64,000 bases of DNA, from contig JAAOMT010000664.1 of assembly GCA_016748015.1 (NCBI GenBank), forward strand, positions 628,715 through 692,714, written 5' to 3'. Positions 1 to 59,382 of the stretch are shown piece by piece. This DNA comes from Geosiphon pyriformis uo1. Taxonomy: Eukaryota > Fungi > Glomeromycota. The notes beneath the pieces are model-generated. The model was not told where the DNA came from. It did not search any database and was given only the letters and a program-made list of their open reading frames with translations. Made by a program: the position numbers and the translations under genes. Every line of letters starts with the position of its first letter. The first letter of the stretch is position 1.

Positions 1-1217
1 AGGATTTTGTTATCAAGTTTTAGCTTGTATGATCTGTTGCCTAGAACTTTATGGATAAAGAATGACCTATCTCATTTATTTTCAAATTTTCCACTCCATT
101 GTTTTTCAGCTTTAGTTTTGTATAAGAAAACTTTGTTTCCAACTTTAAATTTATTAGTGACTGGAGGCAATTTGTTGTTATGCCATTCTTTTTGTTGAGC
201 TTGGGAGTGTTCAATATGAGTGGCTGCTATTCATTATTTTCCTTCTAATGTGCTAAGCAGAGTATAGGCTCTTCGCTAAAGCATTTTTTAGAAATTGTCT
301 TCATCGATTGGTTGTACTGGGTATGTTTCCACTGTGAAACTTATTGGTAACATTGCTGTCCTTCCATAAGTTAAATCAAATGGTATGTGTTTTGTGGTAT
401 CTTGTTTTAGTGTTCTATATGCTAGTAACACTGATGGAATAAAAATATCCCATTCTTGCTCAAAATTGGTTGAGACTTTGGCTAATAATTTACACAGTGT
501 CCTATTGAAACATTCTACAAGCCCATTTGTTTGTGAATGGTAGGGCAAAGATAATGGTCTTTTGACATTAAATTGTTCACAAATTTCCTGGATTAAATTG
601 TTCACAAAATGTGTTCCTTGATCAGATAAAAGTTCTATTGGGCATTCATGTCTACAAATGATGTCTTCGTAAATGAAGTTTGCTACTGATTTTGCATTTG
701 TTCATTGAATGGCTCTGGCTTCGGGCCATTTGGTGAGATAGTCTACAGCTACTGCAATATAATGGTTTCCTTGGTTTGTGATAGGTAGTGGTCTGACTAA
801 ATCAATACCAACTCAGTCAAAAGGCTGTTCAACTTTGATTGAATTTAAAGGTTCTGTAAGGTGAATTCCTCTTCTTTTTTGACAACTATCACATGACTTA
901 ACATATTCATGGATGTCTTTTCTCATTCAAGGCCAAAAGTAATATTCTAGTGTTCTCTGGATGGTGCTGTCTTTTCCTAGGTGTACTGATGAAGGGTCTG
1001 AATGCATGTTATATAAAATGGTTTCTTTTTCATGTTCTTGTATTAATCTGAGCGGATTGTTTAGGTTTCTGAAGTTTCAATAATAAATCATGTTGTTGTG
1101 TAAGAAATATTGTTTGGCTTGTTGTTGTAACTAATGTTTTTTATCTGGGAACCAATCTGTTGGGATTGTTAATGTCTTCAAATATTGTTTAAGATTGTTG
1201 TAGTTTTCGGGGTTCAT
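1..1217 (-). pseudogene. Integrase of A1, a separate ORF starting MNPENYNNLKQYL (truncated by the window edge)
   Basis: HHCC (H..SVHLG..CDSCQ), GIDLV, SDQGTHF, GLVECFN; contains ORF 288..605. Internal stops. Confidence 0.9.
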
Positions 1218-3105
1218 TGTTTGTTGTTTTGTTGCTGTTAATTTAAATGGGTGTTGGTTCTGTTTTCTAATCTTGCCTCATTCTTGAGAGACAATCAACA
1301 TTGATGTGGAGTTTTCTTGGTTTGTGGTGTACAATGTATTGGTAGTTGGCTAAAAATCCTGTCCATCGGGTTTGTTTTGCATTCAGTTGGGTGTTTTTGT
1401 TTTAAAGCCATTTGAGTCCAATATTATCAGTGATAATATTGAATTCTTTAGGCCTAAGATAAAAATTGAAGTAGTGTAGGGCCCAAATTATGGCTGCTGT
1501 TTCTAGTTCTGTGGCAGGGTAGTTTTTCTCGGCTGGTTTTAATGTTCTGCTAGCATAAGCAATTACTCACTCATTTCTATTGTCATCTAATTGTGATAAG
1601 ATGACACCAAAGACAGTATATGAAGCATCTGTAGCTAGTCGAAATCAGTTGCTAAAGTCTAGGTAAGCAAGAATTAGAGCTGTTGTTAGCTTTTCTTTGA
1701 GAATTTCAAAAGCTTTTTGGTGTTCAGTAGTCCATTTATATTCGATGTTTTTGGTGATAAGTTGGTTGAGAGGTTTTGCAATTTCCAAAAATCTTTTGAT
1801 AAACTTCTGATAGTAGAATGCTAATCCGATGAATCCTCTTAATTCTGTGGTATTTTGAGAAGTTTTGAAATTTTTGACAGTGCTTATTTTTCCTGGATCA
1901 GGTTTAATTCCATCTTTGCTTACAATGTGGCCAAAAAAGGCCAAACTCGTTTTTCCGAAGTAGCATTTTTCGATGTTTAGTTTCAATCCTGCTTTTTGTA
2001 ATCATTGAAAAACTTCTTACAGGTGTTTTAAGTGTAATTCAAAAGATGGTGAATAAACATTAGTATTATCGAAATAGACAACTACTGATTTTCAAAGGAG
2101 GCCTTTGTAAACAACATCTATGAGTCTTTGGAATGTTGCTAATGCATTACATAATCCGAAAGGCATTACGTTGAATTCATAATTTCCTTCTTGAGTGGTG
2201 AATGTTGTTTTGGGGCAATCTTTGGGATCCATGGCAACTTGCCAATATCTGCTTTCTAGATCTAGTGTTGAAAAGTATTTGGATTTTCCAAGGGCATCTA
2301 ACATGTCATTGATTTGGAGAAAAGGGTAAGCATTTCCAATGGTGACACTGTTGAGTTGTCAATAATCAACACAAAATTGTATCTTTCCATTTTTCTTTTT
2401 AACTAGGACCACAGATAAGGCCCATGAACTCATTAATGGTTGAATAAGGCCATTGTTAAGCATCCATTGCACTTCTTTTCGGATAAATTGGTGACTTTCT
2501 GGGACAACTCGGTAGGCTTGTTGTTATCTTGGTTTGGCATCTCCTGTATAGATTTGGTGTTGAACCAAATCGGTTCTTCCTAAGTCATTGTTGTTTTCGG
2601 CAAAAATATCGACAAATTCTGTAATTAGCTCTTTGAGCTGGTTCTGTTGTTGTGGTTCAAGTTGTCCCATGTTGATTTGAGATAGTTTTTCCATAACAAC
2701 ATAGTAGTTTTTAGAACTGAGATTTGGGTTGATTTTTAGTAGTGAATGTTTAATGATTTCTGAAAAATTGGGAACTGTCTGGGGTAATTTTTGTTGAAAG
2801 ATGTTACTATGAATGACTCCGATTTCTAAGTTATTTAATAAAACTATGGGATAATTATTGGGATTGTAAAAAGTAACTCGGACTTTCTTTGTTCTTTCTA
2901 GAATATAAATGTTTAGGATCAAGATATTATGTTTCAAGCAGACTTGTTCATTGGATTCAAAAATTTGTTGTGTGGTTGTTAACTTTGGGCAGGTGTAAAT
3001 TTCTGGATGTTCTTCAAAGGGTGAAATAGTAATTGGTTATGGGAGTCATAAAATCTGATGAGATTCATTTTGTTCATTAAGAGCTATGTTTACTGGAACT
3101 GTGAA

Positions 3106-3530
3106 TCATCCAGTTGAACCAAAACCTTTGGTTCCTCTTTCACTTTTTCCCAATTGTTCTCTTTGACTGACTAATCGTAAACCCGAAATGTTGATTAAAG
3201 GTAAATAAATAGCTTGAGCAATTTTTTTGACATGTTCAATCTGAAAAGATTTATTGGTTTCATTTTGTAATATGATTGTAATGTCTTTTGTATATCCTGC
3301 ATCTATGATTCCTTCTCTAACATTAATTCTTTTGCTCGCCAATGATGATCATAAAGCGATTTGGACCATTGCTCCTGGTGAGATTTCAAGGGCAATTTTG
3401 AGGTTGATTTTTGTGAGCAATTTAGGTTTGAGAATAAGGGTATCTTTTCCTGGATATCTTAGATCATATCCAGCATCAATTTCATGAGCTTTTTCAGGCT
3501 TTATTCCTTGTCTATTGTTGTTGAAGTATT
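3106..3530 (-). pseudogene. dut: dUTPase domain within A1 pol
   Basis: All five dUTPase motifs: AGYDL, (R)SSLA, GIIDAGY, KIAQAI, RGTKGFGSTG. Confidence 0.92.
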
Positions 3531-6500
3531 TGAGTTGTGAAGCAGGCTGATTTTTGATGAGATAGACAGGTGTGGCTTTTATTTTTTCTGTTGCTTCAGG
3601 TTCTCTGAATTCAATTTCATATTCATCACTTTCACTGGATAAGGGAATGCTAAAAGTGTAGCATTCAGGACACTATTGTTTATTGCAAGGCATTATGCAT
3701 TTCTCACATAATTTAATGTTCATTTGTTTTAGCTGTTGAGCTTGAACTTCTTTGGTTGGATAAGTGTGACTGGCAATTTGGTGATATACTTCTACTTTAT
3801 CTTCATAGTTGTATCCAGCGATTTCAAAGGTGTATGCAATGTATTCTGATTCTTTCATTTAATGAACATTTTTTTGAGTGGCTCCATTGATTAAAGCCAT
3901 TGCTAAATCAAAAATCATTTTGGCATCGTGAGAGTAATAGTACAGTTTGTTGAGGGTGCTATTGTAAACAGTATCAAAAGATGTTTCTCTTTTGACTTTT
4001 TCTGAAATTGATAAAGCATATTGACAGATTTGATTGCAGACTCCTCCTTTCATTGCTACATCAATCCAATTGCATTCTTCTGGTAGCATATCTCCACAAG
4101 TCAAACAAGGAGTGTTGTCCCATTTTCCACTTCTTTTTATTAGGTGGTCTTATCATTCTCTGTGGCAAGCCTTGCAGTAATAACAAGTATGATTTTCATA
4201 TTTTTCTTCAGGTGAAATGCAGGCTCTCATTGATGAAAGTTTCTTGTGGCAATCTTTGCATTTGAGTGGAATGTAAGGGCATTGTTTTTGTGGTTCTGGT
4301 TTTGAATAGGGGACATTCCATCCAGATGTTACTGGTTCTTTTGTTTCAAGAGAATCGTATGTTGAAAAATACTGTTGTTCAGTTTCATCAGCCCAATTGG
4401 AGGTTGATCCAAGTGCCATAAATGTTTCAATGATGGGTTTTTCTTCTTCCAGTTTGAATTCAAAAGTCAGAGCTTTTTTGGAGTGTTTGTTGAATATACT
4501 ACAAGTGGCAGGTACTCAGGCATGTTGTCCTTGGTAGGAGATTGTTAACTCTTGTGTCTTCCAATTTAGATTAGCATTGGCTTTTTGGAGCCAATTGTTT
4601 CTGACGAAAGCTTGGTATTGGGGAGCATCCATGACCAAAACTTTGACTGGAATGGTAATTCTGTCAATTATGAATGGGAAGTTATCAATTTCTCCTACTG
4701 GAGTTTTTTTCATGCCATTAGCAGTGACAATAATTGTCTGAGCTGGTCAGTCAATGTTTCTCTTTAGCTGGTGTATCAATTGATATGTAATGATGCTTCT
4801 GGTAGATCCACTGTCTAGGATCAAGCGAATTGGCTTTTCTTCTACTTCAGCTTCTATGTACATTGTAGTGATGGCTTTTTGCTCATTAGCCGTTGCATTG
4901 CTAAGCAAGAATGGTGATTCATTTGCTTCAAATTCAAAAGGGAATATATCTGAAAGGTTGGCGTTTTCAGCAATTCTGACTGGTGGGATTATGGTAGGAG
5001 TATAGGAAGAGTTTTGTTGTTGTGCTGCAGCTCTACCTTTTAAGAGTGCAGTATGGTAAAAATTCTGTTCTTCTGGTATCATAAGATAACTAGGTTGAGT
5101 ATGATAGTGGTTGGGTCTTGGTTAAGCTCAATTTCAGGGAACCAATTGGTTGTTTGAATTGATTCTATTGTTGTTTACTTGGTATCGGTTTTGTGGTGTG
5201 AATTGATTTTGCAGAATTAATCTTTGAGCAGGCACTTAATAATGTTGTGTGGGTGGTTGTTGATATTGCTATTGAATTGGCTGTGGGGCAGGCTGATAAT
5301 AGTTACTTTGGTATTGGGGTCTTGGTGGATAGTAAGCTGGTAGTAGTGGTTAATAATAAGATTGCTGTGATGGAGAGTAACGTTGATTACTCCTATTTTG
5401 TTGGTCTCGTTTTAGCTTTCTGCAATCTCTTTTCCAGTGGCCAGAGATTCCACAGTAATGGCAATTCTGAGACTGGTTATTAGAAAGTGGTGCAAAGTTA
5501 TTTTAATTTCATTTTTGGGGTGGTTGATATCTTTGGGGTTGCTGTTGTTGTTGGTTGGTAAAATAGTTTTCAACTTTCTTTGTAAGTTGGTCAATTTTCT
5601 CCTCAGCTGTTAAGCTGGTTTCTCCAATTGCCAAATTTACAAGTTTTGTACAATTGGCCTCTTTCATGGCCATTTCATATCTTTTTGCATGCTATATGGC
5701 AGAGTTTAAATCTTCTGGGGCATGTGGGTGAATCTTTTTAATCAGTTTATCTTTTAGACCAGCAATAAATTGATCCAAGATTTAAGCATTTAAGTAATAA
5801 TCATTGGTTTCTAGTTAACAAATCTTTCTGAAAAGTTTGTTAAACTTCTCAAGATAAGTCATAACAGATTTGGAGGATTCTTGTTTGATATTGTGAAACC
5901 AATTTCGAAGGGTAATGGAGGTATTATTGTCAGTGAACTGTTCAAGAAAGGCTGCTTTGAAAGCATCCCAATCATTGAATGAAGCAGCCAAGTTTTCAAA
6001 CCATTTTTCTACTGTTCCTTTGAGAAAGTAGGGGATAGTTTTTAACATTCTGACAGCATTCCAACCATTCACGTCTCTTGCTTTAGTGACTTGGTCAAGC
6101 CATTTTTGAGGACTGGTTTCAATGTCCTCTCCTAAAAAGTCAGGAATTTTTGCAATATAAGTAGAGACCATTTCTTTTTTGTTTTCTGAGTCTTCTGATT
6201 TTTGTTCTAATTCGGTCTTTTCACTTTGATTTTCTGCTAAGTAGTCAATAAGGTTTGTGCTGGTTGATATTGGTTCTTGTTGTTGAATAGAGCTTTTGGG
6301 TGACTGAAAATTTTCTATTCTTGAAAATCAAATAAGAAGAGAATTTAGTGTTTGTGGTTGAGTAAATGAAATTGGAAATAGTGTAATAAAAAGTAGTAAT
6401 TTGACACTGGTTCCTTGTTCAGGTGTTTGCAAGTGTTTGGCAGTTGTCTTTGTCAGTATTGGAGTGTTTGGAGTGGTTTTTGAGTGTTGTTTTGTTTTTT

Positions 6501-6893
6501 GTTTGCCTTTGTTGCTTGTTTCTGTTTCTGATTCAGAGTCAAAAGAGTATTTGGACTGCACTGGATATTTTTCTTCGCAATACTTGATAATGTTATAATT
6601 GAGTTCTTGAAAGTAGGTGGCAAGTGTTTCACTGTTAAGATCTTCAGTTTTTAATCGTGAATAGTGCACTAAATTATTGTAGAGGTTGCTTTTAACTTCT
6701 GAAATGTTGTAATTTCCAAGAAAATAATTGTTGATATGGTTTTTAATATATAGGTAAAGTGTTCTCTTGACAATTTCAGTTCCATCTGAAATGTTAAATC
6801 TTTGCTTGCAATGGGTGTAAATTGACTGGTAGTACTCTAGAGTTGCTGTGTCTGATGTGGTCACCACTTTGAATTTTGTTGTTGCTGTGTTAT

Positions 6894-6911
6894 TTCTGTG
6901 AGAGAGCACCA
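6894..6911 (-). promoter_or_regulatory. Primer-binding site of A1 (TGGTGCTCTCTCACAGAA), 2 nt from the LTR; tRNA identity uncertain
   Basis: TGG-start 18-mer just after the LTR end. Decayed copy TGGTGTTCTTTTATGGAA at 8059 in A2. Confidence 0.8.
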
Positions 6912-6913
6912 AA

Positions 6914-7902
6914 TGTTACTGAAGGTTTTTGGTCTCTTTTCTGTAATGTTGTTAATGCCTGTTTGCTGTGAATTCACGTTTTCTGGATGTGGTTGAACCT
7001 CCAGTAACTGAATTTATCTTCAAATTATCTTCTATAATTTGAACTGCTGGGCTTATAAGTAGAATGGCCAATTTCTTGCCAGTTACTTTATGTAGTTATG
7101 TTGTAGTAAACATCAACTCTTTCCCAGGAATTGCTTATCTGGAAGCTCACTAAAAATGTGTAGTTACTTTGCTGTGAAAGTCAACACTTCTACAGGAATC
7201 TTGTCTGTAGGCTACCCTGATGATTGTAATAAGAAAAAAAAAGAAAAATAAAAGAAGTGTAAAAAGAAAAGAAAAAAATGTTTTATGGAAGTCATTTCGG
7301 ATTCAGGCCTGGAAGCATTTTAACAGTTTACTGAAATTGGTAGCTAGTCAATTTCAAACTGTTTAGTAGGAATTGGTTAATTTTAAGGGAAATAATTAAG
7401 AATTTGATTTTTCAAATTATTTGATATTTATTTTGTTTCTGTGTGTAAAAGATGATTCTAATTGATAAATCTGAGGTAAGATAAGATATATTTTCTCAAA
7501 AAGAGAAGCTCTTCTTTTATACAATTTGTTATAACACTATTCTATAAACTTGAACTTTGCTATTTTCTACAATTTCACTGAACTAAAGATACATTTCGGC
7601 AAACTACAAGTTATTTCTGCAAATTATTAAATATTTTGGTGAATTATTAATTATTTCAGCAAATTTCTACAAATTTTGGCAAACTTTTTGAATGTTACAT
7701 AGTTCAGGGTATTGCATGATTGATCATCGTAATTAGGTTACATTTGTGTTATGTACAAATTGGGTTATTAATTAAATGAAAATTTTGGATATTTTGCTAA
7801 TGTAATAAGTGATAATTTGAAACGATAATATATGCTAATTAATAATAGAAATTATAAAGATAATTTCATGCTAAATAATATCTTTAATTTTGTTTGATAA
7901 CA
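6914..7902 (-). repeat. A1 5' LTR (~990 bp)
   Basis: TGTTAC...ATAACA termini; aligns end to end with 56187-57166. Confidence 0.93.
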
Positions 7903-14594: not shown

Positions 14595-17355
14595 ACAAGC
14601 ATTTGATACTCTTAAAGAAAAATTTACCACAGCCTCAATTCTTACATATTTAGATTTTAGTAAAAGATTTTAGTTGGCCATTAATGTTTTATACATAGCT
14701 TTTGATATCATTCTATTATAATTAAATAACAATAACAATAAATGAATAATTTTTTATGTTAGTAGAACTTTCAAACCAATTGAACTTAAATATAGATCTA
14801 CCAAATTAGAAACAACAGTTATTATTTGGGTTTTAAAACACTTTTAACAATATCTTTAAAATAAATCTCAATTTAATATAATTACAGATAACATTAGTCT
14901 TAAATAGCTCAACAAAAAAAACTTTGAACTTAGTACTAAACAATTCTAATGGTCTAATTTTTTAACAAACTACAAATACATTATTTATTACAAACCAAAT
15001 AAATTATATACAAATGTAGATAGTCTTTTTAGAATGAGACAAGATTAGAATTAACACCAATAACCTACCAACTTAACAATAATCAACAAATAAAACAATA
15101 GATACCAAAAACTACAACAATATTAAAAACTATCTGAAAACTCTCACCATATCAGAAAATTGGGTTTTAACTAAAAAACACTGATTACAACACCAATTCA
15201 AACAATATTTCTTGTATTACAACAAAATCTATTATTAAAACTGCCAAAATCTAACAAATTTACTTAGATTAGTCCAACAAAATAAAAAAAAACAATCTTA
15301 TACAACATGTATACAAACTCTTTATCAAAACATCTAAGAAAAAACAACACAATACAAAAAACATTAGAACATTATTTTTGGTCTTACATGTATCAAGACA
15401 TTTAATAGTATATAGAGTTATGTAATAGTTGTCAAAGAAAAGAAGGAACTTACCTTACTAAACCTTTAAATCCAATCAAAGTTGAACAATTTTTTGACAA
15501 AGTAGAAATTAATTTGGTCAAATTATTATCTATTACCACTTAAAAAAACTGTTATATTGCAATTGTAGTAGATTATCTCACCAAATGGCCCAAAACCAGA
15601 GTCATTCAATAAGCAAATGTAAAATCAGTAACAAATTTCATTTATGAATACATTATTTGTAGACACAGATGTTCAATTAAACTTTTATTTGATTAAGAAA
15701 CACATTTTGTAAACAACATAATACAAGAAATTTGTGAACAATTTAACATTAAAAAATCTTTATTATCACTCTACCACCCACAAACAAATGAACTGATAGA
15801 ACAATTTAACCAAATATTATGTAAATTATTAGCCAAAGTCTTAATTAATTTTAAGCAAAAATAGAATATCTTTATTTTATTAGTGTTATTAACATATAAA
15901 ACACTAAAACAAGATATTATAAAACACATATTTTTTGATTTAACTTATAAAATAACAGCAATATTATCAATTAATTTCACTATATAAACATATTCTGTAC
16001 AATTAATCAATGAAAAAAACTTTTAAGAAACACTTCAATAAAAAACTTATACTTTTTTTAATAATTTAAAAAAAAAATAACAAATAACAGTTATTTATAT
16101 TAAATATTCTCAAGCTTAACAAAAAAAATGACATGACAACAAATTTCTATTAGTCACCAACAAATTTAAAGTTGGAAACAAAGTTTTTTTATACAGAACT
16201 AAGACTAAAAAACAATAGAATAGAAAATTTGAACATAAATAGAACAGACCATTTTATATTTATAAAATTCTAGACAATAAATCATATAAATTAAGACTTG
16301 ATAACAAAGTCTTAGCAAAAATTGCACATGAAAATTAATTGAAATATTATTATTTTTTAAATCATTAATTTTACAAATTAGTATATATTTCTTTTTAATT
16401 AATCTTAAAGATATTCTCCAAAACTTAGAACCAATAGTTATAATAAAACAACAACCAAAATTAAACATTTAATCTAATATTAACATAATGTTCATTTAAA
16501 ATAAATAATATAAAACAAAAATAGTAAATAATCACCAAAAAAATCCAAAAACCAAAAATATATAAAAATCCAATACCAAAAATATTTTCATATTTTTTTT
16601 CAAATTTTTTTTTCAAATTTTTTTTTTTTTCAAATCTTTTAAATTTTATTTGCAATTATACTAATTTTATCATAATTATTCCATAAAATATTCAAAAAAT
16701 ATTTCAGAAATTAATATTAACTTTGAAAACATTTCTCGACTTATCTATAACAATTAATAAAAGTCAAATTAATTACACCCAAAAAAAAACTACAATACCA
16801 ATAGTAAATAATTTGCAGAATTATTATTTTTATAGAAAAAACACAAGAAATTATTTTGAAAGTCAATTATCAAAACTTTTGAAGCAAGCTTTAAAAGAAA
16901 AATTTTTATTCACTTTTATTAACATTTTACCAAATGCCATAACTTAAAAAAAATCTCTGCAGTATCTTAATGAACAAAATAATGAATATACTCTTATATA
17001 TAAATATTTTTATATTAGAAAAACATTTTATGAACAAACTAGAACTTGCAGCAACAAATCTCACTTTTAAAACTATACAAAAACAAATTCACAATAAATT
17101 TAAAACAGCAGCTAGACCAACAAACACTTGTTATAAATTCAGAACAGCACTTAGACTCTATGATTTTTTTAATACTTGCAAAAATATTTTACAAAATCCA
17201 ATACTCTAACCAATGAAGATTCAATACATTGGTAAACTCACAAAACTAAAATTTTAACAATTTTCAGACCAAATTACCAAGATTATTTTAAACTATTATC
17301 TTAATATTACAATAATGCTTGGACTTTGACAGAGTTCAGTTTTAAAAAAAAATTA

Positions 17356-18299: not shown

Positions 18300-21200
18300 A
18301 TGATTATAACATGAATAAATTAGCCATTAACTTCTTTAAATTCACAAAAAAAAAGAAAAAAACCAAGAGTAATTTCATTATAGAATCCAATAAAGTTTCT
18401 ACATTAATTTTTAATAACAATAAGCCACTAAAGACTAAAGTTTTTAAGAATTCTCTAAAGTTAGAATCTTTAGAAATTGTACAAAAATCTGAACCCTATT
18501 TTGTTGTCAAAAATCTTATGAAAACTCTAGTTCACATTACTTTTGGCCAGTTAATAACTTATTTAAAAAAATTTTTACAAATTATTAATCTCAAAAAAAA
18601 AACACCAAAAACTAATAAGTACTTTTATCAAGCTGAATTCACTAATAATAGTAATGTCACTCCTCTAATTTGCAAAGTTCAAGTAATTGATTATTTTATT
18701 GATTTGATCTTAAACAGTAAATTATTTATTAGTGTCATTGTTAAACACTTTTTTGAAGTTATTAGCAAAAAAATTGATAAACTTTTGACTCAGTCTATAA
18801 CCAATATATATAATAACAAAAAGAAAAGTCTTGATATAACCAAAGCTGTTTTTGTCTACATTAATAACATTAGCATTGAAACTGACATGAAAGTTTTAAA
18901 AGCAAAAAAATATACTATTATTGTTGGTAATAAATAATTTAAGAAAACCAAAGTCTTATTTGACTATGAACTATATAAATTAATTATTAGATATAGTAAG
19001 AAGCTTATTGTAGTTAAATATTATTATTGAACAACACTTCTAATACTCAAGCAGAACCAAGAAGAAGAACAATTAAATAAATCAGATAATAAAAAAAACA
19101 ATGAAGAAAAAAAACAAAAAAAAACTGCTGAATTTGCCTATACTATCTTTACTAGTAATAACAAATCACTAAATAATATTAAAACTGATAAAAAAAGAAT
19201 TATTGTAAATAGCAAATTAATCTGTTAGCTTTACTATGATATCTTTAAAAAAATTTTTAATAGAAAACCTGGCAAAAAAACCAAATACAATTATTAATAG
19301 CATAGTTTTTATGCCTAGTACTAGTGCAATAAATCTTTGTATTTTCTTAGTAATGAATACAAATTTTGTCTAATCTATTACAAAGATTGAGAACCCATTA
19401 GTTTAATATTCAGAGAAAAAATAAAAGAAGTATAAAAGTTTTTTAAGAATAAATTACCTAAAATTTAATCACTAATTATAAAACAAAAAAAATCTTTTTC
19501 AAAAAAAAAAAAATAAACCAAATAAAAAACCTTGAATTTATACAAGAAACCAAGAGCAAATAGGTTTTTTAATTGTAGTAATATCTAAAAAAATAGAACT
19601 CTATGCTTTTATGTTAACTATTACTAATTAAATACTATTACTGAAAAAGATATATATCTACTTTCTAAAATTGATACAATATTAAACCAATTCAATAGTG
19701 CTGCTTTTTTTTCAACTAATGATTTAACTGTTGGATTTTAACAAGTAAAAATAAATCCAAAAAAACTGCTTTTATTACCAAGTATAGCACTTATAAATTT
19801 ACTATTATGCTTTTTGGTCTTATTAATGCTTTTCTTACTTTTCAATATCTAATAGACAAAGTATTTGAATCAGTAAAAAATAACTTTGTTTTAATTTATT
19901 TGAACAACATAATAATATATTCAAAAATCTAAAATAAATACTTTAAATATTTACAAAAAGTTTTTGATCTTCTTAAAAATACTGGTCTTAAAATCAATTC
20001 AATCAAATTTTTTTGAACAACAATTTACTCAGTTTTTTGGTTATTTTATTATAAAAGATGGAATTTTTTTTAATCCAATCAAAGTCAAAAAAATTTAAAA
20101 TATTAAACAATCAATAAACATTCATAAACTATGCTCTTTTCTTGGTTTGGTATTTTATTATCAAAAGTTTGTTAAAGATTTCTCCAAAATTGCCTTTCTT
20201 TTTAATTAGCTATTTAAAAAAACTGGTAATTATTACTGGAATACACATCAGCAAAAAATCTTTGAAACTCTGAAAAAAAACTAGTTACTAAACCAATTTT
20301 TATGCAATTTAATCTGAACCAATTTTTTATTTTTTACACTAATACATCTGGTTTTAGACTTAGTATTGTTTTCTTTCAAAAAAATAAAGATAACAAAAAA
20401 CATATTATAGCTTATACCAGTTAATTACTTTTTTTAGCAGAGCAAAACTACTTAATTACTAAACAAAAATAACTGACAATAGTATAGATTACTAGTTATT
20501 GGAATAAATATTTTTTTGGTATCAAATTCTTAATAGTAACAAATCATTAAGCTTTGATTTGGCTATATAAAAAAAAGAACCTGGAACACAAAAAAATAAC
20601 TTACTAGATACTCCATTTGAATGAATTTAACTATAATATACAATATTGTAAAAAAGCTCATTATCAAAATATTAATGCTTTTTTTAGACTTATTATTCAG
20701 TAATAGTACAATTTTTCTAAATCAAATCAATCTAATTATTAATAAATCTTTCTTAAAAAAAATATAATAATAGACTTAAACAACTACTTTGTTTTAATGA
20801 AATTTTTAAATAAAGAACAATACCTATTAGACTATACTCAACAGCAAAAAAAACATTTACAAAAACAATCAAGTTTTTATTTAATTTACCAGAACTAATT
20901 ATACAAAAAAAATAAAAAAAATTCTGACTGTTCTTAAAGAGTTATTAAATTTAAAAAAAAATTGTGATCTATAATATGCATACTAATTTATTAGTTAAAC
21001 ACTTTAGAAAAACTAAAACAATTCAAAAAATTTTCACTCATTATTATTGGTCTATCTTAAGAAAAAACATTGTTAAATATATTAAAATCTGTAATATCTG
21101 TTAAAAAAAACTCCCCCCCCCCCAATTGTAAAGAAGACATTCATCCAATTTTTGTTGATTAACTATTTAACAAAATTGGTATAGATGTTGTTAGATTTTT

Positions 21201-28104: not shown

Positions 28105-28847
28105 TGTTACGAGTTGGAGTAACAAGCTAATGGATAGCAAGGGAGAACAGAATTGTAGGGTAGAAATAATCAAAAGGAATCTCAACTTTAAAGAGTGAAT
28201 TAAATAAGTATGGATTTAATGTGTGAGATCAGTCTCATAAAATATCTCAATTGCTATACTTTTCAAAAATAACCGGGGAATTTAAAGGTAGAGGGATAGT
28301 CCATACTGTCAACAAATAATTATACTGATATAATTTTATGCCTTATGTCAGCGCTCTTAGAATTCAATATCAAGTATCAAATGTGCTTTTCAGTCACATT
28401 TTATTCAATAATCTTCAAATACTTCATTTAATCGTTTCAGGAAAAGGCAGATAAACACCAACAAGAGATCTTTTATCTTTAAGATGTTCAGATACTTGAA
28501 GATAGAGAAAGAGAAATTAGCGATAAGAGAATGTTTGAGATGAAAGTTGTTTTATTATATTTCTTTGATTGTTGGGAACATACTTTTCTACAGCTAAGAG
28601 ACTCATTGTTTATATAGCTATGAAAAGTGGTTAACAATCAGGTCAATGATCAGGTCAATGATCAGATCAATGATCAGGTCAACGGTCAGGTCATTGATCA
28701 AGTCAATGATCAGATCAATGATTAGGTTAACAGTTAGGTCATTGATCAGGTCAATAATTACTATCTAAAAATAGATTGGCTAATTATATGACATCAGTGG
28801 CTAATACATGTGATAACTAATAAAAACTATGAGTTTCAACTGTAACA
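28105..28847 (-). repeat. B1 3' LTR
   Basis: TGTTAC...GTAACA; direct repeat of 35147-35860. Confidence 0.95.
28629..28760. repeat. 11 tandem 12-bp units GGTCAATGATCA in U3, just upstream of a TATATAA box on the minus strand
   Basis: Counted directly. 9 units at 35667-35773, 2 at 37290-37313, 3 at 44786-44821. Confidence 0.9.
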
Positions 28848-29473
28848 TCATCCTCTTCAAAGAGATTAAGCTCTGGCAAAATCAAACTATTTATAAAATA
28901 TTCTAATTGAAGGGTTTTATCTAACTTAAAACTAACTAGTTTGTTAAAATTTTTTGTGAATAAAGTGTATAGTACTTGAGGCAAAATGAGCTTTGTATTC
29001 AAGAGACCAAACCTTTGTATAAGAATTTTGGCTCTTCTGGCAATGGTCAAAACTCTTGAGACATTCAACCATATAATGTCCAAAATTTCTACTTGTATCT
29101 CTGAAGTTGTTTTTTTCATGAGCTTTATGTCTTCTATGATTTCACCAAGACAACCATAGAGCTCTAGTTGTATTCCATATGACAAGTTTTTGTCTATGGA
29201 CAAGATTTCTTTAATCATTTTTTCAATTGTGATGAAAGGTACAAGTATTGTTGCTGTTATGCTTTTCAACAGATATTTATCTATTTTGCTACCAATTTTT
29301 TCTCTTCTGGTAGTTGTTTTCTTTGGTCTGATAACAGTATGTGTTCTACTGTTGTCAGTTATTGTAGTTTGTTTTCCAATGGTTAGAGTAGCATTTGGAT
29401 GGTTTTTAATCCAATACTCATAAAGAATATAGAAAGCATTTTGAATGTTTTGATCCAGAAAATAATTGTTTAT
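28817..29473 (-). pseudogene. B1 ORF3, unknown helical protein (218 aa; start ATG>ATA), runs 31 nt into the 3' LTR
   Basis: Stop-free frame 28817..29569. B2 has ATG at the homologous position 38026 and the same 657-nt length. Confidence 0.8.
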
Positions 29474-29514
29474 GTCAATTGAAGATACCTCTGTTTTGGG
29501 AATGGTGCATTTAT

Positions 29515-30828
29515 TTATACTTGGTTTTTGCTGATCATTTGGATCAGTATTACCACAACTGGTAACCAATTAGGTTGTTTGTGATATTTCTTGAGTTGCA
29601 TGCCATGAACAGAATGATCATTAAAGATTGTTCTGGATTGATCTTGAAGAATATAAGAACCATTGTTCAAAACTTTGTTGACTATAAAGGGATCTTTCTA
29701 CTGGCTAGAGAATTTATTACCATAGACATTGTTTCTGTCTGAGCAGTATTCCAAAACTAAGTCACCAATACTTAAAGAAAGTGTTTTATAAGTTTTCTTC
29801 TTTTTAAGCTTTTCTTGGAACTGTTTTATCTTTTCAAAGGCAATTATTCATGCTTCTACAAGTGAGTCAAGAATGGTACCAAGTCTCCTTTGCAAAATGT
29901 CTTTGTAATTCTCTATTGTGATCTTTTCAAAAGATATTGTCTCAATATCAGTTTCTATTGATAGTGTTGCCATTTGTCTATAGAGCAAATAAAAAGGTTC
30001 ATAACTTGTTATGTCATGATTCACAGTTCTATAAGCAAACAAAGCTGAAGGCAGTACTTTGTCCCATAAGTTTGTTTCTTCACTTGTTTTGGCTAAAATT
30101 TTACACAGTGTTCTATTAAAACGTTTTACTAGATCATTTGTTTGGAGGTAATAAGGAGAGGAAAGTTTGTGACATATTTCCATTTTTCTACAAAGTTTTT
30201 CAACCAGTGTACTGAGAAAAGCTCTTCTTCTATTAGATAAAAGTTCTTTGGAGCAGCCATGGCAACAAATAATATCTTCATAAATGAAATTAGCAATGGA
30301 AATTGCTGTTTGATCTGGGGTGGCTCTTGCTTCTACCCACTTTGTAAGATAGTCAGTAGCTGTAATAATATATCTATTGCCATCAGGAGTTACTGTTAAT
30401 AATCCAACAACATCTATACCAATTCTGTCAAAGGATTGGCCAACAGAGATTGGATAGATGTCTTCTTTGTGATTGGATTTTCCTCTTCTTTGGCAAGTAT
30501 CACAGGTTTTGATGTACTCAGCAATGTCTTTTTCCAAGATAGGCCAATAATAGCAAGCTAAGGTTTTCTGAATTGTTTTTGTTTTTTCAAAGTGTTCAGC
30601 TAATAGATCAGTGTGCATATTATAGATCACAATTTTTCTTTCTTCAAATTTTATGACTCTCTGGAGGTGGTCAGGATCTTTTCTGTTTCTTTTGTATAGT
30701 TGGTTCTAGCGAATCAAATAGAAATTTGATTGTTTGCACAAATGTTCTCTTTGTTGTCAATTGTATTTTGGTGGGTATTGTCTTTTATCCAAAAATTCCA
30801 TTAAGACAGAGTAGTTGTCCAAGTTCAT
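29515..30828 (-). pseudogene. B1 integrase, a separate ORF starting MNLDNYSVLMEFLD
   Basis: H..H..CDTCQ, GIDVVG, LVKRFN; C-terminus WLPVVVI; contains ORF 29848..30630. Confidence 0.9.
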
Positions 30829-30893
30829 TATTGTGTTTGGTTGTGAGAGAATTACTAATAATTAGGTTGGTTTGGTTTGAGGTAGTTGTACTG

Positions 30894-33553
30894 TCACTGG
30901 ATGATAAGTCTAGAGAAAGCATTAGCATTTTGATGATGTGCTTCTTTGTGATGTTTAATATCATAGTCGAATTCATCCAAGTGGAGTATCCAGTAAGTTA
31001 TTCTTTTATGTTCCAGCTTCTTTTTGTTGTATAACCAAACCAAAGCTTGGTGATCTGTTACTACCAGGAATTTGGCACCAAGAAGATATTTGTTCCAATA
31101 ACTAGTAGCCCATACTACTGCCAGGCATTCTTGTTCAGTCACTAAGTAGTTCTGCTCTGCTAGTGAGAGAGTTCTACTAGTATATGCTATGGCATGTTCT
31201 TTGCTATCTTCATCTTTCTGGAATAGAACAGCTCCAAGTCTATAGCCAGATGTATTAGTGTAGAGGATGAAAGGTTGATCTAGATTAGGTTGCTTCAGAA
31301 TTGGTTCAGTGACTAGTTTTTCCTTTAGAGTTTCAAAAGCTTTTTATTGGTGTGTGCCCTAATGATAGTTGATGTTTTTTCTGAGTAGCTGATTAAGTAG
31401 AGCAATAATAGAAAGCCAAACCAAGAAAAGAGTGTAGTTCATGAACATTCATTGGTTGTCTAATGTTCTGGACTTTTTCAACCTTAGCTGGATCAGGAAA
31501 AATTCCATCTTTTGTGATAAAATGACCAAGGAATTGGGTAGATTGTTTTTTAAAAAAAGATTTGATCAGATTAATCTTGAAACCTGCATTTCTGAGAAGA
31601 TTAAAAACCTTTTACAAATGTACAAAGTGTCATCCCAGGTTTTTGAGTACACCATTATATTGTCCAGATAGACCAAAACAAAGTTTTTTTTCACTGATTC
31701 AAATACTTTATTCATTAAGCATTGAAAGATGGGAGAGGCATTGGTGAGACCAAAAGGCATGACTGTAAATTCATAGGTACCATACTTGGTGATGAAGGCG
31801 GTTTTCTTCTGGCTTTTTGGATTCATCTCTATTTGCCAGAATTCAGCAGTTAGATTAATAGTTGAAAAGAAAGCAGCATCTTTAAATTGGTTCAGCATTG
31901 CATTAATCTTGGGAAGTAAGTACATGTCTTTTTTAGTGATGGCATTTAATTGGTAGTAATCAACACAGAAGTGTAAGGCTCCACCTTTTTTGAATACCAC
32001 TACAACTGGAAAAGCCCATTTACTCTTGGTTTTTTGTATGAATTCAAGTTCTTTCATCTGGTTTATCTCTTTCTTGATGAACTCATCATTGTGCCCATTG
32101 GATTGATATGACTTCAAATGGATGGGGTGAGTTTCTCTGGTGGTGATAGTGTGTTGTATCACATGGGTTTGTCCTGGGGTATCACTTTTTTTTGAGATAA
32201 CTGGGCTGTTTCTTACCAACAGATTTTCAATGTCTATTTTTCTTTCTTCTGGAGAGGGTTTTTTTGTTCTACAATTAGTGATTGGATCTTAAGTGGTTCA
32301 TTTTCAAAGAACTTTTGGATTTCTTTCAATTCTTCTCTAAGTATTAAACTGATTAGTTCCTAATCTTTGTAATAGATCAGACATAATTTGCATTCATCAT
32401 TTGGAGAATACAAAAGTTGGTTGTACTAGCACCAGGCACAAGGACCATGTCACTAATAATGGTACTTGGCTTTCTTGCTAGGCTTCCGGTCAAAAGTTCT
32501 TCTTAGGATATCATAGTAGGGCCAGCAGATCAGCTTGCCATTTACAATGATTCCTTTTTTGTCAGCTTTGATATTGTCCAATGGCTTGCCATTGCTGGTG
32601 AAGGTGGTATAAGCAAGTTCAGCAGTTTCTTCTTGTTCCTCTTGTTCTTTATTATTATCACTTTCTTTATCATCTGATTCCTCTGATTGTTCTTCTTCCT
32701 GATTCTGTTTTGGTATTGGAGGAATTGTCCAGTGGCAATACTTAACCACAATGGGCTTCTTACTATATCTAATAATTAGTTCACAAAGTTCATAGTTAAG
32801 TAATGCTTTGGCTTTCTTAAGCTATTCATTTCCAACAATAATAGTGTATTCCTTGGCTTCAAAAACTTCCATGTCAGTTTCAATGCTGATGCTATTGATA
32901 TGGACAGGAACAGCTTTGGCTATGCCCAGATCTTTTTTCTTGTCACCATGTACATTGGTCATTGGTCAGGTAAAAGATTCATCAATCTTTCTTCCAATTG
33001 CTTTCAAAAAGTGTTTGGCAATGACGCTAACAGATGATCTACTGTCCAGGATCAAGTCAATGAAATAGCCAGCCACTTGGGCTTTGCAAATTAATGGGGT
33101 GACATTGCTGTTGTCAGCAAGTTCAGCTTAGTGAAAGTGTTTATTGGTTTTTGGTGTTTTCTTCTTAGAAATTAGAGATTTGTGGAGATCTTTTCTGAAT
33201 TGTGGGTGGATTATTAGTTGGCCAAAGGTAATGTGTGCAGGAGTTTCTATGAGATCTTTGACAACAGAATAAAGTCTAGATTTTTGTACTATTTCTGGGG
33301 GTTCCAACTTTGAAGGATTTTTAAAGACTTTAGCCTTTGGTGGCTTATTATTATTAGCAGTTGATGTGGATAGTTTATTTGGATCTGAAATGAAATCAAC
33401 CTTGGCTTTCTTCTTCTTTCTTGTTAATTCTGAGGTGTTAATTGCTAGTTCATTCATGTCATGATCATTATCAGTTAAGTTAAAAGCATAAAAAGAGTTT
33501 TTTTCTGGTTGGCTTGCACTCTCATCTTTTGAAGGTGCACCTACCAGTTTAAA
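30894..33553 (-). pseudogene. pol: B1 pro-pol (protease, Cys-rich segment, RT, RNase H), ends AFSRLIIQ*
   Basis: LILDSRSS, MPFGLTNA, VYLDN, EQECLAVVWA, VTDHQAL. Confidence 0.9.
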
Positions 33554-35146: not shown

Positions 35147-35860
35147 TGTTACAGGTTGGAGTAACAAGCTAATAGATAGCAAAGGAGAACAGGATTGTAG
35201 AGTGATGGAAATAATTAAAGAGAATCTCAACTTTAAAGAGTGAATTGAATAAGTATGGATTCAATATGTGAGATCAGTCTCATAAAATATCTCAGTCGCT
35301 ATACTTTTCAAAGGTAACCGGGGAATCTGAAGGTAGAGAGATAGTTCATACTGTCAACAAATAATCACACTAGTATAATTCTATGCCTCACATCAGCACT
35401 TTTAGAATTCAATATCAAGTATCAGATGTGCTTTTCAGTCATGTTTTATTTAATAATCTTCAAATACTTCATTTAATTGTTTTAGAAAAAGGCAGATAAA
35501 CACCAACAAGAGATCTTTTATCCAAAAGATGTTTAGATACTAGGGAAAAGGAAATTAGCAATAAGAGAATGTTTGAGATGAAAGTTGTTTTATTATATTT
35601 CTTTGATTATTAGGAACATACTTTTCTACAGCTAAGAGACTCATTGCTTATATAGCTATGAAAAGTGGTCAACAACCAGATCAATGATCAGGTCAAAATT
35701 AGGTCATTGATTAGGTCAATGATCAAGTCAATGATTAGGTCAATGGTTAAATCATTGATCAGGTCAATGATTACTATCTAAAAATAGATTGGCTAATTAT
35801 ATGACATCAATGGCTAATACATATAATAACTAATAAAAACTATGAGTTTCAACCATAACA
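35147..35860 (-). repeat. B1 5' LTR
   Basis: TGTTAC...ATAACA, adjacent to the PBS. Confidence 0.95.
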
Positions 35861-36759: not shown

Positions 36760-37400
36760 TATTACAGGTTGGAGTAACAAGCTAACAGATAGCAAGAGAA
36801 AACAGGATTGTAGGGTGATGGAAATAATCAAAGGGGAATTCAACTTTAAAGAGTAAATTGAATAAGTATGGATTCAATGTGCGAGATCAGTCTCATAAAA
36901 TATCTTAGTTGCTATTCTTTTCAAAAGTAACTGGGGAATCTGAAGGTAAAGGAATAGTCCATACTGTCAACAATTGATTACCACTGGTATAATTCTATGC
37001 TTTATGTTGGCACTCTTAGAATTCAATATCAGGTATCAACTTGTGCTTTTCAGTCATGTTTATTCAAATAATTTTCAAAAGCTACAATTATATACGTCAG
37101 GAAAAGGCCAACAAGTAATCTTTTATCTTTAAGATGTTTAGATACTTGAAGATAAAGAAAGAAAAATTAGTGATAAGAGAAGGATTGAGATGAAAGTTGT
37201 TATTTTATTTATTCTTGATTATTCAGATGCTTGTTATTACATGTTTTTCTACAGCTAAAAGATTTATTACTTATATAGCTATCAAAAGTAGTCAATGATC
37301 AGGTCAATGATCATTTTCTAAAAATAGTGTGACTAATCATATGACATCAGTGGCTAATATATGTGATAATTAATAAAAAGTATAGATCTCAACCATAACA
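36760..37400 (-). repeat. B2 3' LTR
   Basis: T(G>A)TTAC...ATAACA; direct repeat of 44274-44908. Confidence 0.94.
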
Positions 37401-39802
37401 TCATCTTCTCCAAAGAGATTGAACTCTGGTAAAATCAAGCTATTTATAGTATAATCTATTTGAAAAGTTTTATCTAACTCAAAGCTAACTAATTTATTGA
37501 AGTCTTTTGTAGATAGGGTGTATAATACTTAAGACAAAATGAGTTTTGTATCCAAGAGACCAAATCTTTGTATTAGAGTTTTGGCTCTTTTAGCAATAGT
37601 TAAAACTCTTGGAACATCTAATTGTATAATGCCCAAAATTTCTGCTTGTATCTTTGAAGTTGTTTTCTTCATGAGCTTTATGTTATCTATGATTTCACCA
37701 AAACAATCATAGAGCTCTAGTTGTCTTCTATATGACAAGTTTTTGTCTATGGGTAAAATTTCTTTAATTGTTTTTCCAAGTGTGATAGAGAGTACAAGTA
37801 TTGCTGCTGTTATACTTTCTAGCAAATATTTATCTATTTTGCTACCAATTTTTTTTCTTTTGGTAGTTGTTTTCTTTGGTCTAATAACAGTATGTGTTCT
37901 ACTGCTAACAGTTATTGTGGTCTGTTTTCCAATAGTCAAAGTAGCATTTGGATAGTTTTTGATTCAATATTCATGAAGAGTATAGAAAGTGTTTTGAATG
38001 TTTTGATCCAGAAAATAATTGTTCATGTCAATTGAAGATACCTCTGTTTTGGGAGTGGTGCATTTATTTATATCTGATTTTTGCTAATCATTTGAGTTGG
38101 TATTACCACAACAGGTAACTAATTAGATTATTTGTAATATTTCTTAAGTTGTATGCCATGAACAGGACAATCATTAAAGATTGTTCCAAATTGATCTTGA
38201 AGAATATAAAAATCATTGTTTAGAACTTTGTTGACTATAAAGGGGTTCTTTCTATCGGTTAGAGAATTTATCACCATAGACATTGTCTTTGTTTGAACAG
38301 TATTCCAAAACCAAATCATTAATGCTTAAGGAAAGTGTTTTATAGGTTTTTTTTTTCTTAAGCTTTTTTTGGAACTGTTTTATCTTTTTAAAGGCAATTA
38401 TCAGTGCCTCTACCAATAAGTCAAGAATGGTACCAAGTCTTCTTTGCAAAATGTCTTTGTAATTCTCTATTAAGATTTCTTCAAAAGGTATTGTCTCAAT
38501 ATCAGTTTCTATTGATAGTGTTGCCATTTGTCCATAGAGCAGGTAAAAAAGTTTATAACTTGTTATGTTATAATTTACAGTTCTATAAGCAAACAAAGCT
38601 GAAGACAGTACTTTGTTTCATAAGTTTGTTTTTTCACTTGTTTTGGCTAAGGTTTCATACAGTGTTCTATTAAAATATTTTACTAGGCCATTTGTTTAGG
38701 GGTAATAAAGGGAGGAAAGTTTGTAATGTATTCCCATTTTTCTACAAAGTTCTTCAACCAGTATACTGAGAAAAGCTCTTTTTTTATCAGATAAAAGTTC
38801 TTTAGGGCAGCTATGATGACAAATAATATCTTTATAAATGAAATTAGCAATGGAAACTGCTATTTGATCTGGGGTGGCTCTTGCTTCTATCCACTTTGTA
38901 AGATAGTTAGTAGCTGTGATAATATATCTGTTGCCATTAGAAGTTACTGTTAATGGTCCAACAACATCTATACCAATTCTGTCAAAGGATTGGCCAACAG
39001 AGATTGGATGGATGTCTTCTTTGTGATTGGGTTTTCCTCTTCTTTGGCAGATATTACAGGTTTTGATGTACTCAGCAATGTCTTTTCCCAAGATAGGCCA
39101 ATAATAGCGAGCTAGAGTTTTTGGAATTGTTTTTGTTTTTCCAAAGTGTCTAGCTAATGGATCAATGTGCATGTTGTAGATCACAATTTCTCTTTTTTCA
39201 AATCTTATGACTCTCTGGAGACAGTTAGGATCTTTTCTATTTCTTTTATATAATTGGTTCTAACAGATCAAATAAAAATTTGATTGTTTATGCAAATGTT
39301 CTCTTTGCTGTCAAGTGTATTCTGGTGGGTATTGTCCTTTACCCAAAAATTCCATTAAGGCAGAGTAGTTGTCCAAGTCCATTATCGTGTTTGGTTGTAA
39401 GAGAATTACTAATAATTAGGTTGGTTTGGTTTGGGAAGTTGTATTATTACTTGGTAGTAAGTCTGGAAAGAGCGTCGGCATTTTAATGATTAGCTCCTTT
39501 ACAGTGTTGAATATCATAGTTGAATTCATCCAAGTAGAGTATCCAGTGGGCTATCCATTTATGTTCTAGTCTTTTCTTGTTGTGCAGTCAAACCAAAGCT
39601 TGGTAATCTGTTATCACCAAAAACTTTACTCCCAGAAAATACTTATTCCAGTAACTGGTAGTCCAGACTACTGCTAAGCATTCCTGCTTAGTAATTGAAT
39701 AGTTCTGTTCTGCTGATGTAAGGGTTCTACTGGCATATACTATTGTATGTTCCCTGCCATCTTCATTTTTTTGTGACAGAACAGCACCAAGTCCATAACC
39801 AG

Positions 39803-40338
39803 TGTTACGGGATGGTTTTCTTGTTATATTTAATTGCTGATATCCCGTTTTAATTGCAATCAGTCTTTCGTGAGTTCCTCAGTTCTATTTGTGTGATAAT
39901 GTCACTGTTACACTGAAGGCTTTCTTTTTACTGTTGTGATGTAAGTTATTCTTTAATTCTTGATTGTTGTATGTGTTTATGTACTCTTTCTCAGAGGCTG
40001 AACTGAAATCTACCCACTGTCTGGGGTCTTCTCTGAGGCTATCCTTGCAACAACAACANNNNNNNNNNNNNNNNNNNNCCCAATATTAAAACTACTGTAT
40101 ATATACATGTTTGTAGTTCTACAAGAAAATACTTTCTTTTTGATATTTCAACCTGGTGTTTGCTGCTATCACCAGTTGGTGTTGGCTGCTATTGTGAACT
40201 GGTACTTGTCACTATCGCGAGATGGTGTTTGCTACTATGTTAATCATTACCTTTCTAAGATTATTACTGTGCTATATTATGATTGAATAGTTTGTATTAT
40301 TTTTATGATTCTTTTTGCTAAATTCTTAAACCATAACA
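39803..40338. mobile_element. LTR-bounded insert (family D) in B2 RNase H, spanning an assembly gap
   Basis: TGTTACGG...CCATAACA termini and TSD CCAG. Confidence 0.85.
40059..40078. other. Assembly gap (20 N)
   Basis: N run. Confidence 1.
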
Positions 40339-43300: not shown

Positions 43301-44273
43301 AGAGTCTACACGTTTGATTAGCTTTCTAATAACTTTGGCATATTCAGTCACTACTTTTCCAGGGCCTTGGATTCTTCTTTTCAATTCCATGTGCCATTTG
43401 GATATTAATATTGGGGTTCTGAACTTGGCCTCAAATTGGATAGTGAAAGAAGTATTTTCTTCTCCAGCATTGGTTGATGTCCATCTGATTATTCTGTGTT
43501 GAGCATTGACATCTGTTTCTTGTGAGAACCAGATAGCAGAAAAGCCTTGAAGGTAGCCACCAACGATTTGGAACTTGTATTTTTCATTATATTGGTTGGC
43601 TGTGACAGCTCCCTCAAAATCATCTAATCATTCAATTGGATCTTGTGCATCACCTCTAAATAGTGGTAGTGGGGTATTGTTTCTTTTTACTAAAGCAGTT
43701 TGTATATCTTAGAGGGTGGCCAGAATGTTTACTTGCATGGGGTCATTAGCCATTGGTTCAAGAGTAACTGTTTGTGTAGATGAGTCTGATTTGCTTAATA
43801 AAAAGTCAAAAACAGGGGCAGTTTGGTAACTTTTTTCTTCTGTTTCAAAAGGAGTTTCAGTTGTTTGATGGGCAGCAATCCAAATGTAGATTTGATAATT
43901 CAGATATTCGAAATTAGGGAGCTGTTGTTCAAAGGTTGCAAAATATAAGAGCTGATTGATACTGTTGTTTTTTTCTTCAAAATTGTCTTCAAAATAGGCT
44001 TGGTCAAAGTAATAGGTTGTATAAGCTGTGTAAGTTTCAGCTGAATGCTTATTTAGAAACCAGTTTCAAAAGTCTTGGAATTGTCTGCTAGATTGTTCTT
44101 CAATGGGAAAGCAAATCAAGCAGGAGGGCAAAGAATTGAGTTCAATAAAGTCTAAATTGTTTTTGTTGTGTGCTTTAAAGTGTTCTTTTGATTGTTGTGA
44201 CAGGTATGAATAATCACCCATACAATAGGAAACAAAGTGGATTTTGACAACCTCACAGAGAGCACCACTTTTA

Positions 44274-44908
44274 TGTTACGGGTTGGAGTAACAAACTAAT
44301 GGATAGCAAAGGAGAACAAGATTGTAGGGTGATGGAAATACTCAAAGAGGAATTCAACCTTAAAGAGTGAATTGAATGAGTATAGATTCAATGTGTGAGA
44401 TCAGTCATTATTCTTTTCAAAGGTAACTGGGGAATCTGAAGGTAGAGGAATAATCTGTACTGTCAACAATTAATCACCACTGGTATAATTCTATGCTTCA
44501 TGTTGACACTCTTAGAATTCAATATCAGGTATCAACTTGTGCTTTTCAGTTACGTTTATTTAAATAATTTTCAAATGCTATAATTATATACGTCAGAAAA
44601 AGGCCAACAAATAATTTTTTATTTTTAAGATGTTCAGATACTTGAAGGTAGGGAAAAAGAAATTAGTGATAAGAGAAGAATTGAGATGAAAGTTGTTATT
44701 TTATTTATTCTTGATTATTCAAATGCTTGTTATTATATGCTTTTCTATAGCTAAGAGATTCATCACTTATATAGCTATCAAAAGTGGTCAATGATCAGAT
44801 CAATAATCAGGTCAATGATTACTTTCTAAAAATAGTGTGACTAATCATATGACATCAGTGGCTAATACATGTGATAATTAATAAGAAGTATAGGTCTCAA
44901 CTGTAACA
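44274..44908 (-). repeat. B2 5' LTR
   Basis: TGTTACG...GTAACA, adjacent to the PBS. Confidence 0.94.
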
Positions 44909-48761: not shown

Positions 48762-48812
48762 GAAAAAAACATGAAAAAAAAAGATATATTAAGTAATTCA
48801 ATTGTTAACTGA

Positions 48813-59336: not shown

Positions 59337-59382
59337 TGTTTGTTGTTTTGTTGTTAATTCAAATGGGTGTTGGTTTTGTATT

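Follow-up and report, generated by a model that had tools for sequence, protein, structure and literature searches.

The window, by which we mean the whole 64,000-nucleotide stretch of DNA analysed here, contains three copies each of two families of LTR retrotransposons, A and B (Table 1). Pfam matches in these elements cover gag, protease (PR), reverse transcriptase (RT) and pieces of integrase (IN), and the order PR–RT–RNase H (RH)–IN holds on the DNA. The integrase combines PF17921 and PF00665 (HHCC plus rve/DDE), and a GPY/F-type motif, WKGPYY, can be recognized by eye in P0030 and in the related locus L003 described below. Elements B1 and B2 are both complete; they have TG..CA LTRs (one end of B2 has decayed to TA) and 4-bp target duplications. 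A TGG located 2–6 nt past the 5′ LTR is a candidate primer-binding site (PBS).

Families A and B differ in how gag and pol are joined. In family A, gag, PR, dUTPase, RT and RH form one frame. In family B, passage from gag to pol requires a −1 shift at the heptamer TTTAAAC, which lies just ahead of the gag stop, is followed by a downstream stem and is kept in B1 and B2; TTTAAAC is therefore likely to be a −1 frameshift site. The preliminary description had assigned both families a three-unit plan (gag-pol, IN and ORF3), which holds for A but not for B, where the units are gag, frameshifted pol, IN and ORF3.

Table 1 Features of the family A and family B elements, in positions of the window.
Feature	Position	Strand	Remarks
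A1 integrase ORF from ATG 1217	1..1217	-	decayed; runs off the window
A1 intercistronic spacer	1218..1266	-	86% A+C, unstructured, without ATG
A1 Pol stop TAG	1267..1269	-	4 codons past the RNase H end motif
A1 internal region, one gag-PR-dUTPase-RT-RH frame with decay stops	1267..6913	-	gag start approximate
A1 dUTPase domain between protease and RT	3109..3510	-	PF00692, E 1.4e-12
A1 5′ LTR (TG...CA), then PBS-like TTTGG	6914..7902	-	
A2 junction: TAG, 49-nt spacer, decayed start ATA	15046..15100	+	
B0 junction: TAA, 66-nt spacer, decayed start ATA	20701..20772	+	
B1 3′ LTR	28105..28847	-	
B1 ORF3, start ATA (ATG in B2)	28817..29473	-	without Pfam match; extends into the 3′ LTR
B1 integrase ORF, HHCC and rve	29515..30828	-	decayed
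B1 junction: TGA, 65-nt spacer with CTAAT..TTAG, ATG	30826..30896	-	
B1 slippery heptamer TTTAAAC at the gag/pol −1 shift	33547..33553	-	downstream stem
B1 5′ LTR	35147..35860	-	element flanked by 4-bp duplication ATAT
B2 whole element	36760..44908	-	LTRs 44274-44908 and 36760-37400; 4-bp duplication CTAT
B2 junction: TAA, 64-nt spacer, ATG	39380..39449	-	
B2 slippery heptamer TTTAAAC	42674-42680	-	downstream stem
A3 3′ LTR	56187..57166	-	
A3 ORF3, weak match to the clade's ORF3 family	57135..57854	-	end approximate
A3 integrase ORF	57977..59336	-	decayed
A3 junction: TAG, 46-nt spacer, ATG	59334..59385	-	

Several other features of the region were recorded. The A1 LTR abuts a fragment of the A2 5′ LTR (window 7903-8056), a sign of nesting, and B0 starts mid-element directly after the A2 3′ LTR (window 18299). 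Relative to B1, B2 has an insertion of ~540 bp in the RT–RH region (window 39803-40338). A dUTPase is also present in the relatives P0240 and P0259, and a NUDIX domain in P0237, P0264 and P0265. A tandem array with a 9-bp period and open frames, together with a pair of neighboring ORFs on the minus strand (321 and 168 aa) that have no Pfam match, occupies window 48329-48900 and 53367-54839.

Pol–integrase junctions in the window

In all six copies the Pol frame stops four codons past the RNase H end motif. The family A Pols end in SRMRQD-TAG at 1269, FRMRQD-TAG at 15046 and SRMKQD-TAG at 59385, and those of family B in SRLIIQ-TGA at 30896, SRLTTK-TAA at 39449 and FRLIIQ-TAA at 20701. After a spacer of 46–66 nt, each junction encodes an integrase N-terminus of the form M(N/D)xxNY, the start being ATG at 1217, 59336, 30828 and 39382 and ATA at 15098 and 20770, in the two most decayed copies. 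Stop-to-start distances are 52/52/49 in family A and 68/67/69 in family B. These coordinates and distances bear out the preliminary description of a Pol that stops right after RNase H and an integrase that starts separately. Its argument that the frame is unconstrained in B does not stand, resting as it does on 1-nt indels in dead copies, which are uninformative on constraint; the branch point and acceptor that it proposed for the B spacer (CTAAT..TTAG) are present in B1 and B2, but B0 has TTAA at that site, and the signal is not a general feature.

The six spacers share an unusual composition: they are 44–59% A and contain 0–2 G each, which places them in the lowest 0.2–4% of same-length stretches of their own element. 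Their predicted folding energies range from 0 to −0.5 kcal/mol, no ATG occurs inside them, and each holds 2–5 stops in the Pol frame. In family A every copy has the integrase in the +1 frame, A1 and A3 differing by a 3-nt indel; the integrase frame is open across the Pol stop in A1 and A3, and the spacer translated in the Pol frame reaches the ATG as N-N-E.

All six copies are dead, with a transition:transversion ratio of ~10:1 and a CpG bias. This heavy decay favors reading the Pol stops as C-to-T artefacts, as do five internal integrase codons at which all three copies of a family carry a stop (4 of 399 in A and 1 of 393 in B). Because such internal codons exist, shared stops alone are not proof of an original stop. 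Moreover, the TAG of family A could be a decayed CAG or TGG, in which case Pol would run on to overlap the integrase start. However, even when the A stops are read as sense, the integrase keeps its own ATG and its +1 frame, and the split is kept in intact relatives. We consider the artefact reading almost certainly wrong. The six window copies alone are not beyond chance; the proof of the split is the intact relatives.

Homologues of the integrase and of Pol

We searched proteins of 156–499 aa with the open stretch of the B1 integrase and took the best 120 of 428 matches, which are 44–65% identical to the query; the named ones are from Rhizophagus. Among these best 120 of 428, the integrase starts 61–76 aa before the first zinc-finger His in 96 (at exactly 71 in 68 of them), none starts earlier and 24 start later. 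As gene callers force a Met, the evidence lies in the fixed start position and not in the letter. In 94 of these 96 the Met is followed by D, E or N; M-D/E/N is the pattern for NatB acetylation, and codons for D and E give a G at +4. The nearest Atlas clusters are mostly Mucoromycota, followed in score by clusters named GIN1, and the earlier suggestion that this group be surveyed proved a good pointer, the named members being arbuscular mycorrhizal fungi.

The same search among proteins of 500–2000 aa gave 40 matches. At their head are four NCBI gene models (47–49% identity), assigned to Rhizophagus clarus and Cetraspora; the other 36 are at 29–39%. What is lost at the joins in these four models (P0121–P0123 and P0160) is either the RNase H end motif or all of RT, and usually the N-terminal helix of the integrase as well. 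A metagenome scan with P0001 yielded two loci, one of them useful (L001, with 60 nt of upstream DNA), and a scan of viral contigs with the integrase gave no matches.

For Pol, the query was the RT–RH of P0121 (517–1645 aa), and 120 rows were considered among the matches listed. We kept 104 after removing the query itself, a partial match that carried no name and 14 rows whose names point to animals or plants. The RNase H end motif is present in 93 of these 104 Pols among the matches listed, and in none of the 93 is it followed by an HHCC. Most of them (77) stop within 30 aa of the motif, some perhaps because a contig ends there, and the remaining 16 carry non-integrase tails of 76–405 aa. Such tails characterize a subclade comprising P0225, P0228, P0233, P0238 and relatives, several with Cys/His clusters. 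Among the 11 Pols that lack the end motif are four further R. clarus models, these with integrase domains. A viral-contig scan with Pol returned only four loci, either unrelated or canonical fused elements.

Among the matches listed, 7 of the 93 Pols end in [HYN][EG]-stop, including five of the nine with tails of 15–30 aa, and these sequences interleave with short-tail families on the RT–RH tree. Read from the peptides, this ending is the putative footprint of an ATGnnTAA start/stop overlap with the integrase in the +1 frame, as in family A. It seems that either form, overlap or spacer, could arise from the other when an early stop is lost or gained, and such interconversion would suit translational coupling that is tolerant of distance. 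Eight integrase/Pol pairs were found on contigs of equal size when 32 × 42 rows were compared, where ~0.3 would be expected, which suggests that the two are separate ORFs on the same contigs.

Intact relatives and phylogeny

A scan of genome contigs identified 26 loci, three of which (L003, L004 and L013) belong to this lineage. In 16 of the other 23 the integrase is fused to a long upstream frame, five are short or broken and two resemble bacterial insertion sequences. In L003, Pol ends 105 nt ahead of an unbroken integrase, which is followed by an ORF3 that is likewise intact. Gag, Pol and the integrase are all present in L013, with masked gaps and with a 120-nt spacer between Pol and the integrase, and in L004 an upstream ORF, putatively Pol, ends 97 nt ahead of the integrase. 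Each of the three spacers contains five Pol-frame stops as well as an integrase-frame stop 4–7 codons ahead of the ATG, and these stops exclude simple readthrough or a single frameshift. The three spacers are T-rich rather than A-rich. That of L003 is G-poor and unstructured, and T/C-rich tracts follow both of the L003 stops (Pol and IN). All three loci are on fungal-type contigs inside bacterial (soil) MAG assemblies, most likely as contaminants; a search of these three MAGs found no further copies.

In a quick, unrooted LG+G tree of 85 integrases, 35 clade rows, including window families A and B, form one branch (SH-aLRT 95), the remaining 50 being distant rows labelled as fused; since rows were picked by similarity the result is partly circular. 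The RT–RH tree gives the same picture, with a long and unreliable B1 row. Both trees were built from search matches only. The stand-alone integrases are thus one branch, and its named members are arbuscular mycorrhizal fungi. Integrase starts, Pol ends and the contigs of relatives agree with the earlier view that the stand-alone ORF with its own start is a trait of the lineage and not a product of decay. From these sequences we judge the split almost certainly real and clade-wide, with the integrase encoded outside the Pol polyprotein.

The third ORF

The ORF3 of L003 (L003:2613-3050) belongs to a conserved family of 179 representatives of 130–150 aa, whose named members are from Rhizophagus and Gigaspora. 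It has no Pfam match. Its predicted model is confident and all-helical (pLDDT 96), with no Foldseek matches at E ≤ 0.001 in PDB or BFVD. The clade ORF3 profile gives a weak match to the family A ORF3, in the position expected for it (iE 0.014 and 0.24), and none to the family B ORF3. Assignment of the B1 ORF3 to THAP9_C was considered and rejected, the Atlas leads being sub-0.9 only. At the integrase-to-ORF3 junction of family B (window 29471-29519 and 38024-38072, minus strand), the integrase stop overlaps TATAAATA, and an ATG 4 nt further on opens an 11-codon ORF that ends as TGA-C-ATG at the likely start of ORF3.

Translation of the integrase ORF

The explanation that we tentatively prefer is termination–reinitiation across a short, unstructured, G-poor spacer. 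Ribosomes on the full-length RNA would terminate translation at the Pol stop codon and begin again at the integrase ATG: a fraction of post-termination 40S subunits would scan 50–120 nt and reinitiate as on LINE-1 RNA, giving less integrase than RT. The integrase would be made in mature form, with no protease step. Being made on genomic RNA, it could be co-assembled in cis by binding to RNA, RT or Gag, much as foamy-virus Pol is packaged without fusion to Gag. Several features of the nine junctions (six in the window plus L003, L004 and L013) are consistent with this model. The stop-to-start distance is always short (49–120 nt), A occupies position −3 in all nine, and ATG is absent from eight of the nine spacers, that of L013 holding one out of frame. 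Folding is weaker than −1 kcal/mol in seven spacers, the other two, L004 and L013, being at about −10 to −11 kcal/mol.

Other observations weigh against reinitiation. The upstream ORF exceeds 700 codons, and after long ORFs a signal is normally needed. The motif of termination-dependent reinitiation of the TURBS type has UGGGA-type letters upstream of the stop, and TGGGA occurs in none of the nine junctions within 120 nt before the Pol stop; nor do the flanks of the junctions have a stable RNA structure in common (z ranging between −2.35 and +2.02). The overlap footprint comes from peptides of relatives and could have a neutral origin if Pol reads through into a stop-poor A/C leader. Finally, an ordinary fungal 5′ UTR is an A-rich, G-poor leader with A at −3, and the spacers fit that description equally.

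The last point is shared by a strong rival, an internal promoter, situated within the spacer or the RNase H region, that would produce a capped subgenomic integrase mRNA, with the spacer as its 5′ UTR, and another such mRNA for ORF3. Besides the resemblance of the spacers to short fungal 5′ UTRs, which extends to their lack of structure, this reading is favored by the presence of TATAAATA at the integrase stop ahead of ORF3 in B1, B2 and L003, by the T/C-rich tracts past both L003 stops, and by the fact that a third cistron is more easily reached by its own promoter than by two restarts. On the other hand, TATAAA is absent from all nine junctions (120 nt before the Pol stop plus the spacer), the window A and B spacers have no T-rich tracts, and start/stop overlaps are not predicted; on balance we consider an internal promoter unlikely. 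Splicing, in which a donor in the 5′ leader would be joined to an acceptor just upstream of the integrase ATG, is quite unlikely. It would resemble the expression of retroviral env or foamy-virus pol, foamy-virus Pol being made from spliced RNA. Every junction does contain at least one YAG at −10 to −64, a T-rich TTAG or ATAG lies 10–29 nt before the ATG in B1, B2, L003, L004 and L013, and an acceptor at −10 would take out the upstream ATG of L013. However, A+T-rich DNA often contains YAG, and the acceptor position is not conserved. Splicing is further weakened because the only YAG common to all family A copies is the stop codon itself and because the L003 integrase-to-ORF3 spacer has no AG after the stop.

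Production of a fused RH–IN protein by +1 frameshifting, by readthrough or by splicing out an intron that spans the spacer appears very unlikely. Family A, with its uniform +1 frame and, in A1 and A3, an integrase frame open across the stop, would permit it, and there are eight NCBI gene models, from R. clarus and Cetraspora, in which integrase sequence is joined to that of Pol or Gag. We rejected these models as proof of fusion, since four delete the RNase H end motif at the join, as described above, and the other four lack it. The stops in both frames of the L003, L004 and L013 spacers also oppose a fusion, and it would leave unexpected the fixed start in 96 integrase homologues (of the best 120 of 428). 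Cap-independent internal entry on an A-rich spacer would draw on the unstructured, A-rich window spacers, and A-rich internal entry exists in yeast; no conserved motif was seen in the junctions, however, and the T-rich L003, L004 and L013 spacers do not fit, making this reading highly improbable. Returning to reinitiation, a broader proposal would be that the whole LTR branch of arbuscular mycorrhizal fungi swapped polyprotein processing of the integrase for a polycistronic genomic RNA with restarts after very long ORFs, and that ORF3 serves as a reinitiation activator or as an adaptor of the integrase to the particle. We offer this as speculation and consider it quite unlikely.

Implications

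The location of the integrase inside Pol has been treated as a near-invariant of LTR retrotransposons, for fusion solves both expression and packaging. That a large and diverse lineage does without fusion implies that an alternative solution works. We found no description of the integrase as a separate ORF in a Gypsy lineage in the literature searched, with Repbase Reports and subscription journals outside its scope. A stand-alone integrase would need its own route into the particle. The split makes two questions testable: by what means an enzyme can join a Gag particle to which it is not covalently linked, and what lets fungal ribosomes get to a second ORF when the first is very long. The tendency of gene callers to produce free-standing "DDE-type integrase" genes or deletion-bearing joins to Pol is likewise explained by the split. 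Where structure-based LTR classifiers look for RT, RH and IN in a single frame, they may take intact copies for broken ones.

Comparison with known systems

In LINE-1, with a 63-nt inter-ORF spacer, and SART1, with a UAAUG overlap, a second enzyme ORF likewise follows shortly after a stop on one RNA. LINE-1 is the nearest precedent, with low-frequency reinitiation proposed for it (PMC4091050); SART1 and the fungal viruses HvV190S and CHV1 rely on stop–start coupling (PMC10275272). LINE-1 and SART1 are non-LTR elements whose first ORF is short, whereas here the upstream ORF exceeds 700 codons and reinitiation is a proposal. L1 ORF2 translation is independent of its AUG (PMC4091050), in contrast to the fixed start position of the integrase. 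TURBS-type coupling also yields its downstream ORF at a sub-stoichiometric level, but it needs an 18S rRNA-complementary motif and a stop and start within ~20–30 nt (PMC10275272), neither of which is found in the nine junctions.

Foamy virus offers a precedent for an enzyme expressed without Gag fusion, its Pol being packaged via RNA and possibly Gag contacts (PMC3196705 and PMC3705302). There the whole PR–RT–IN precursor is separate, whereas here the integrase alone is split off. Ginger1/GIN1 shares a stand-alone Gypsy-like integrase of ~400 aa with an N-terminal extension ahead of the zinc finger (PMC2836005), and the stretch upstream of our integrase zinc finger resembles the Ginger1 YPYY motif by eye. 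Ginger1, however, is bounded by terminal inverted repeats, lacks RT and carries OTU or Ulp1 tails; the present elements are LTR-bounded with RT and RH, and the integrase sits between RH and ORF3 inside the LTRs.

With canonical Ty3/Gypsy elements (Metaviridae), the present elements have in common the TG..CA LTRs, the 4-bp duplications, the gag-PR-RT-RH-IN order on the DNA and an HHCC plus rve integrase with a GPY/F-type motif. Reviews ascribe to Ty3/Gypsy elements one or two proteins with the integrase inside Pol (PMC12440569, PMC3248453 and PMC2864245), whereas here the integrase lies outside Pol, and ORF3 is unlike env. The elements are a Gypsy-derived variant that departs from the canonical members in one feature, the integrase within Pol.
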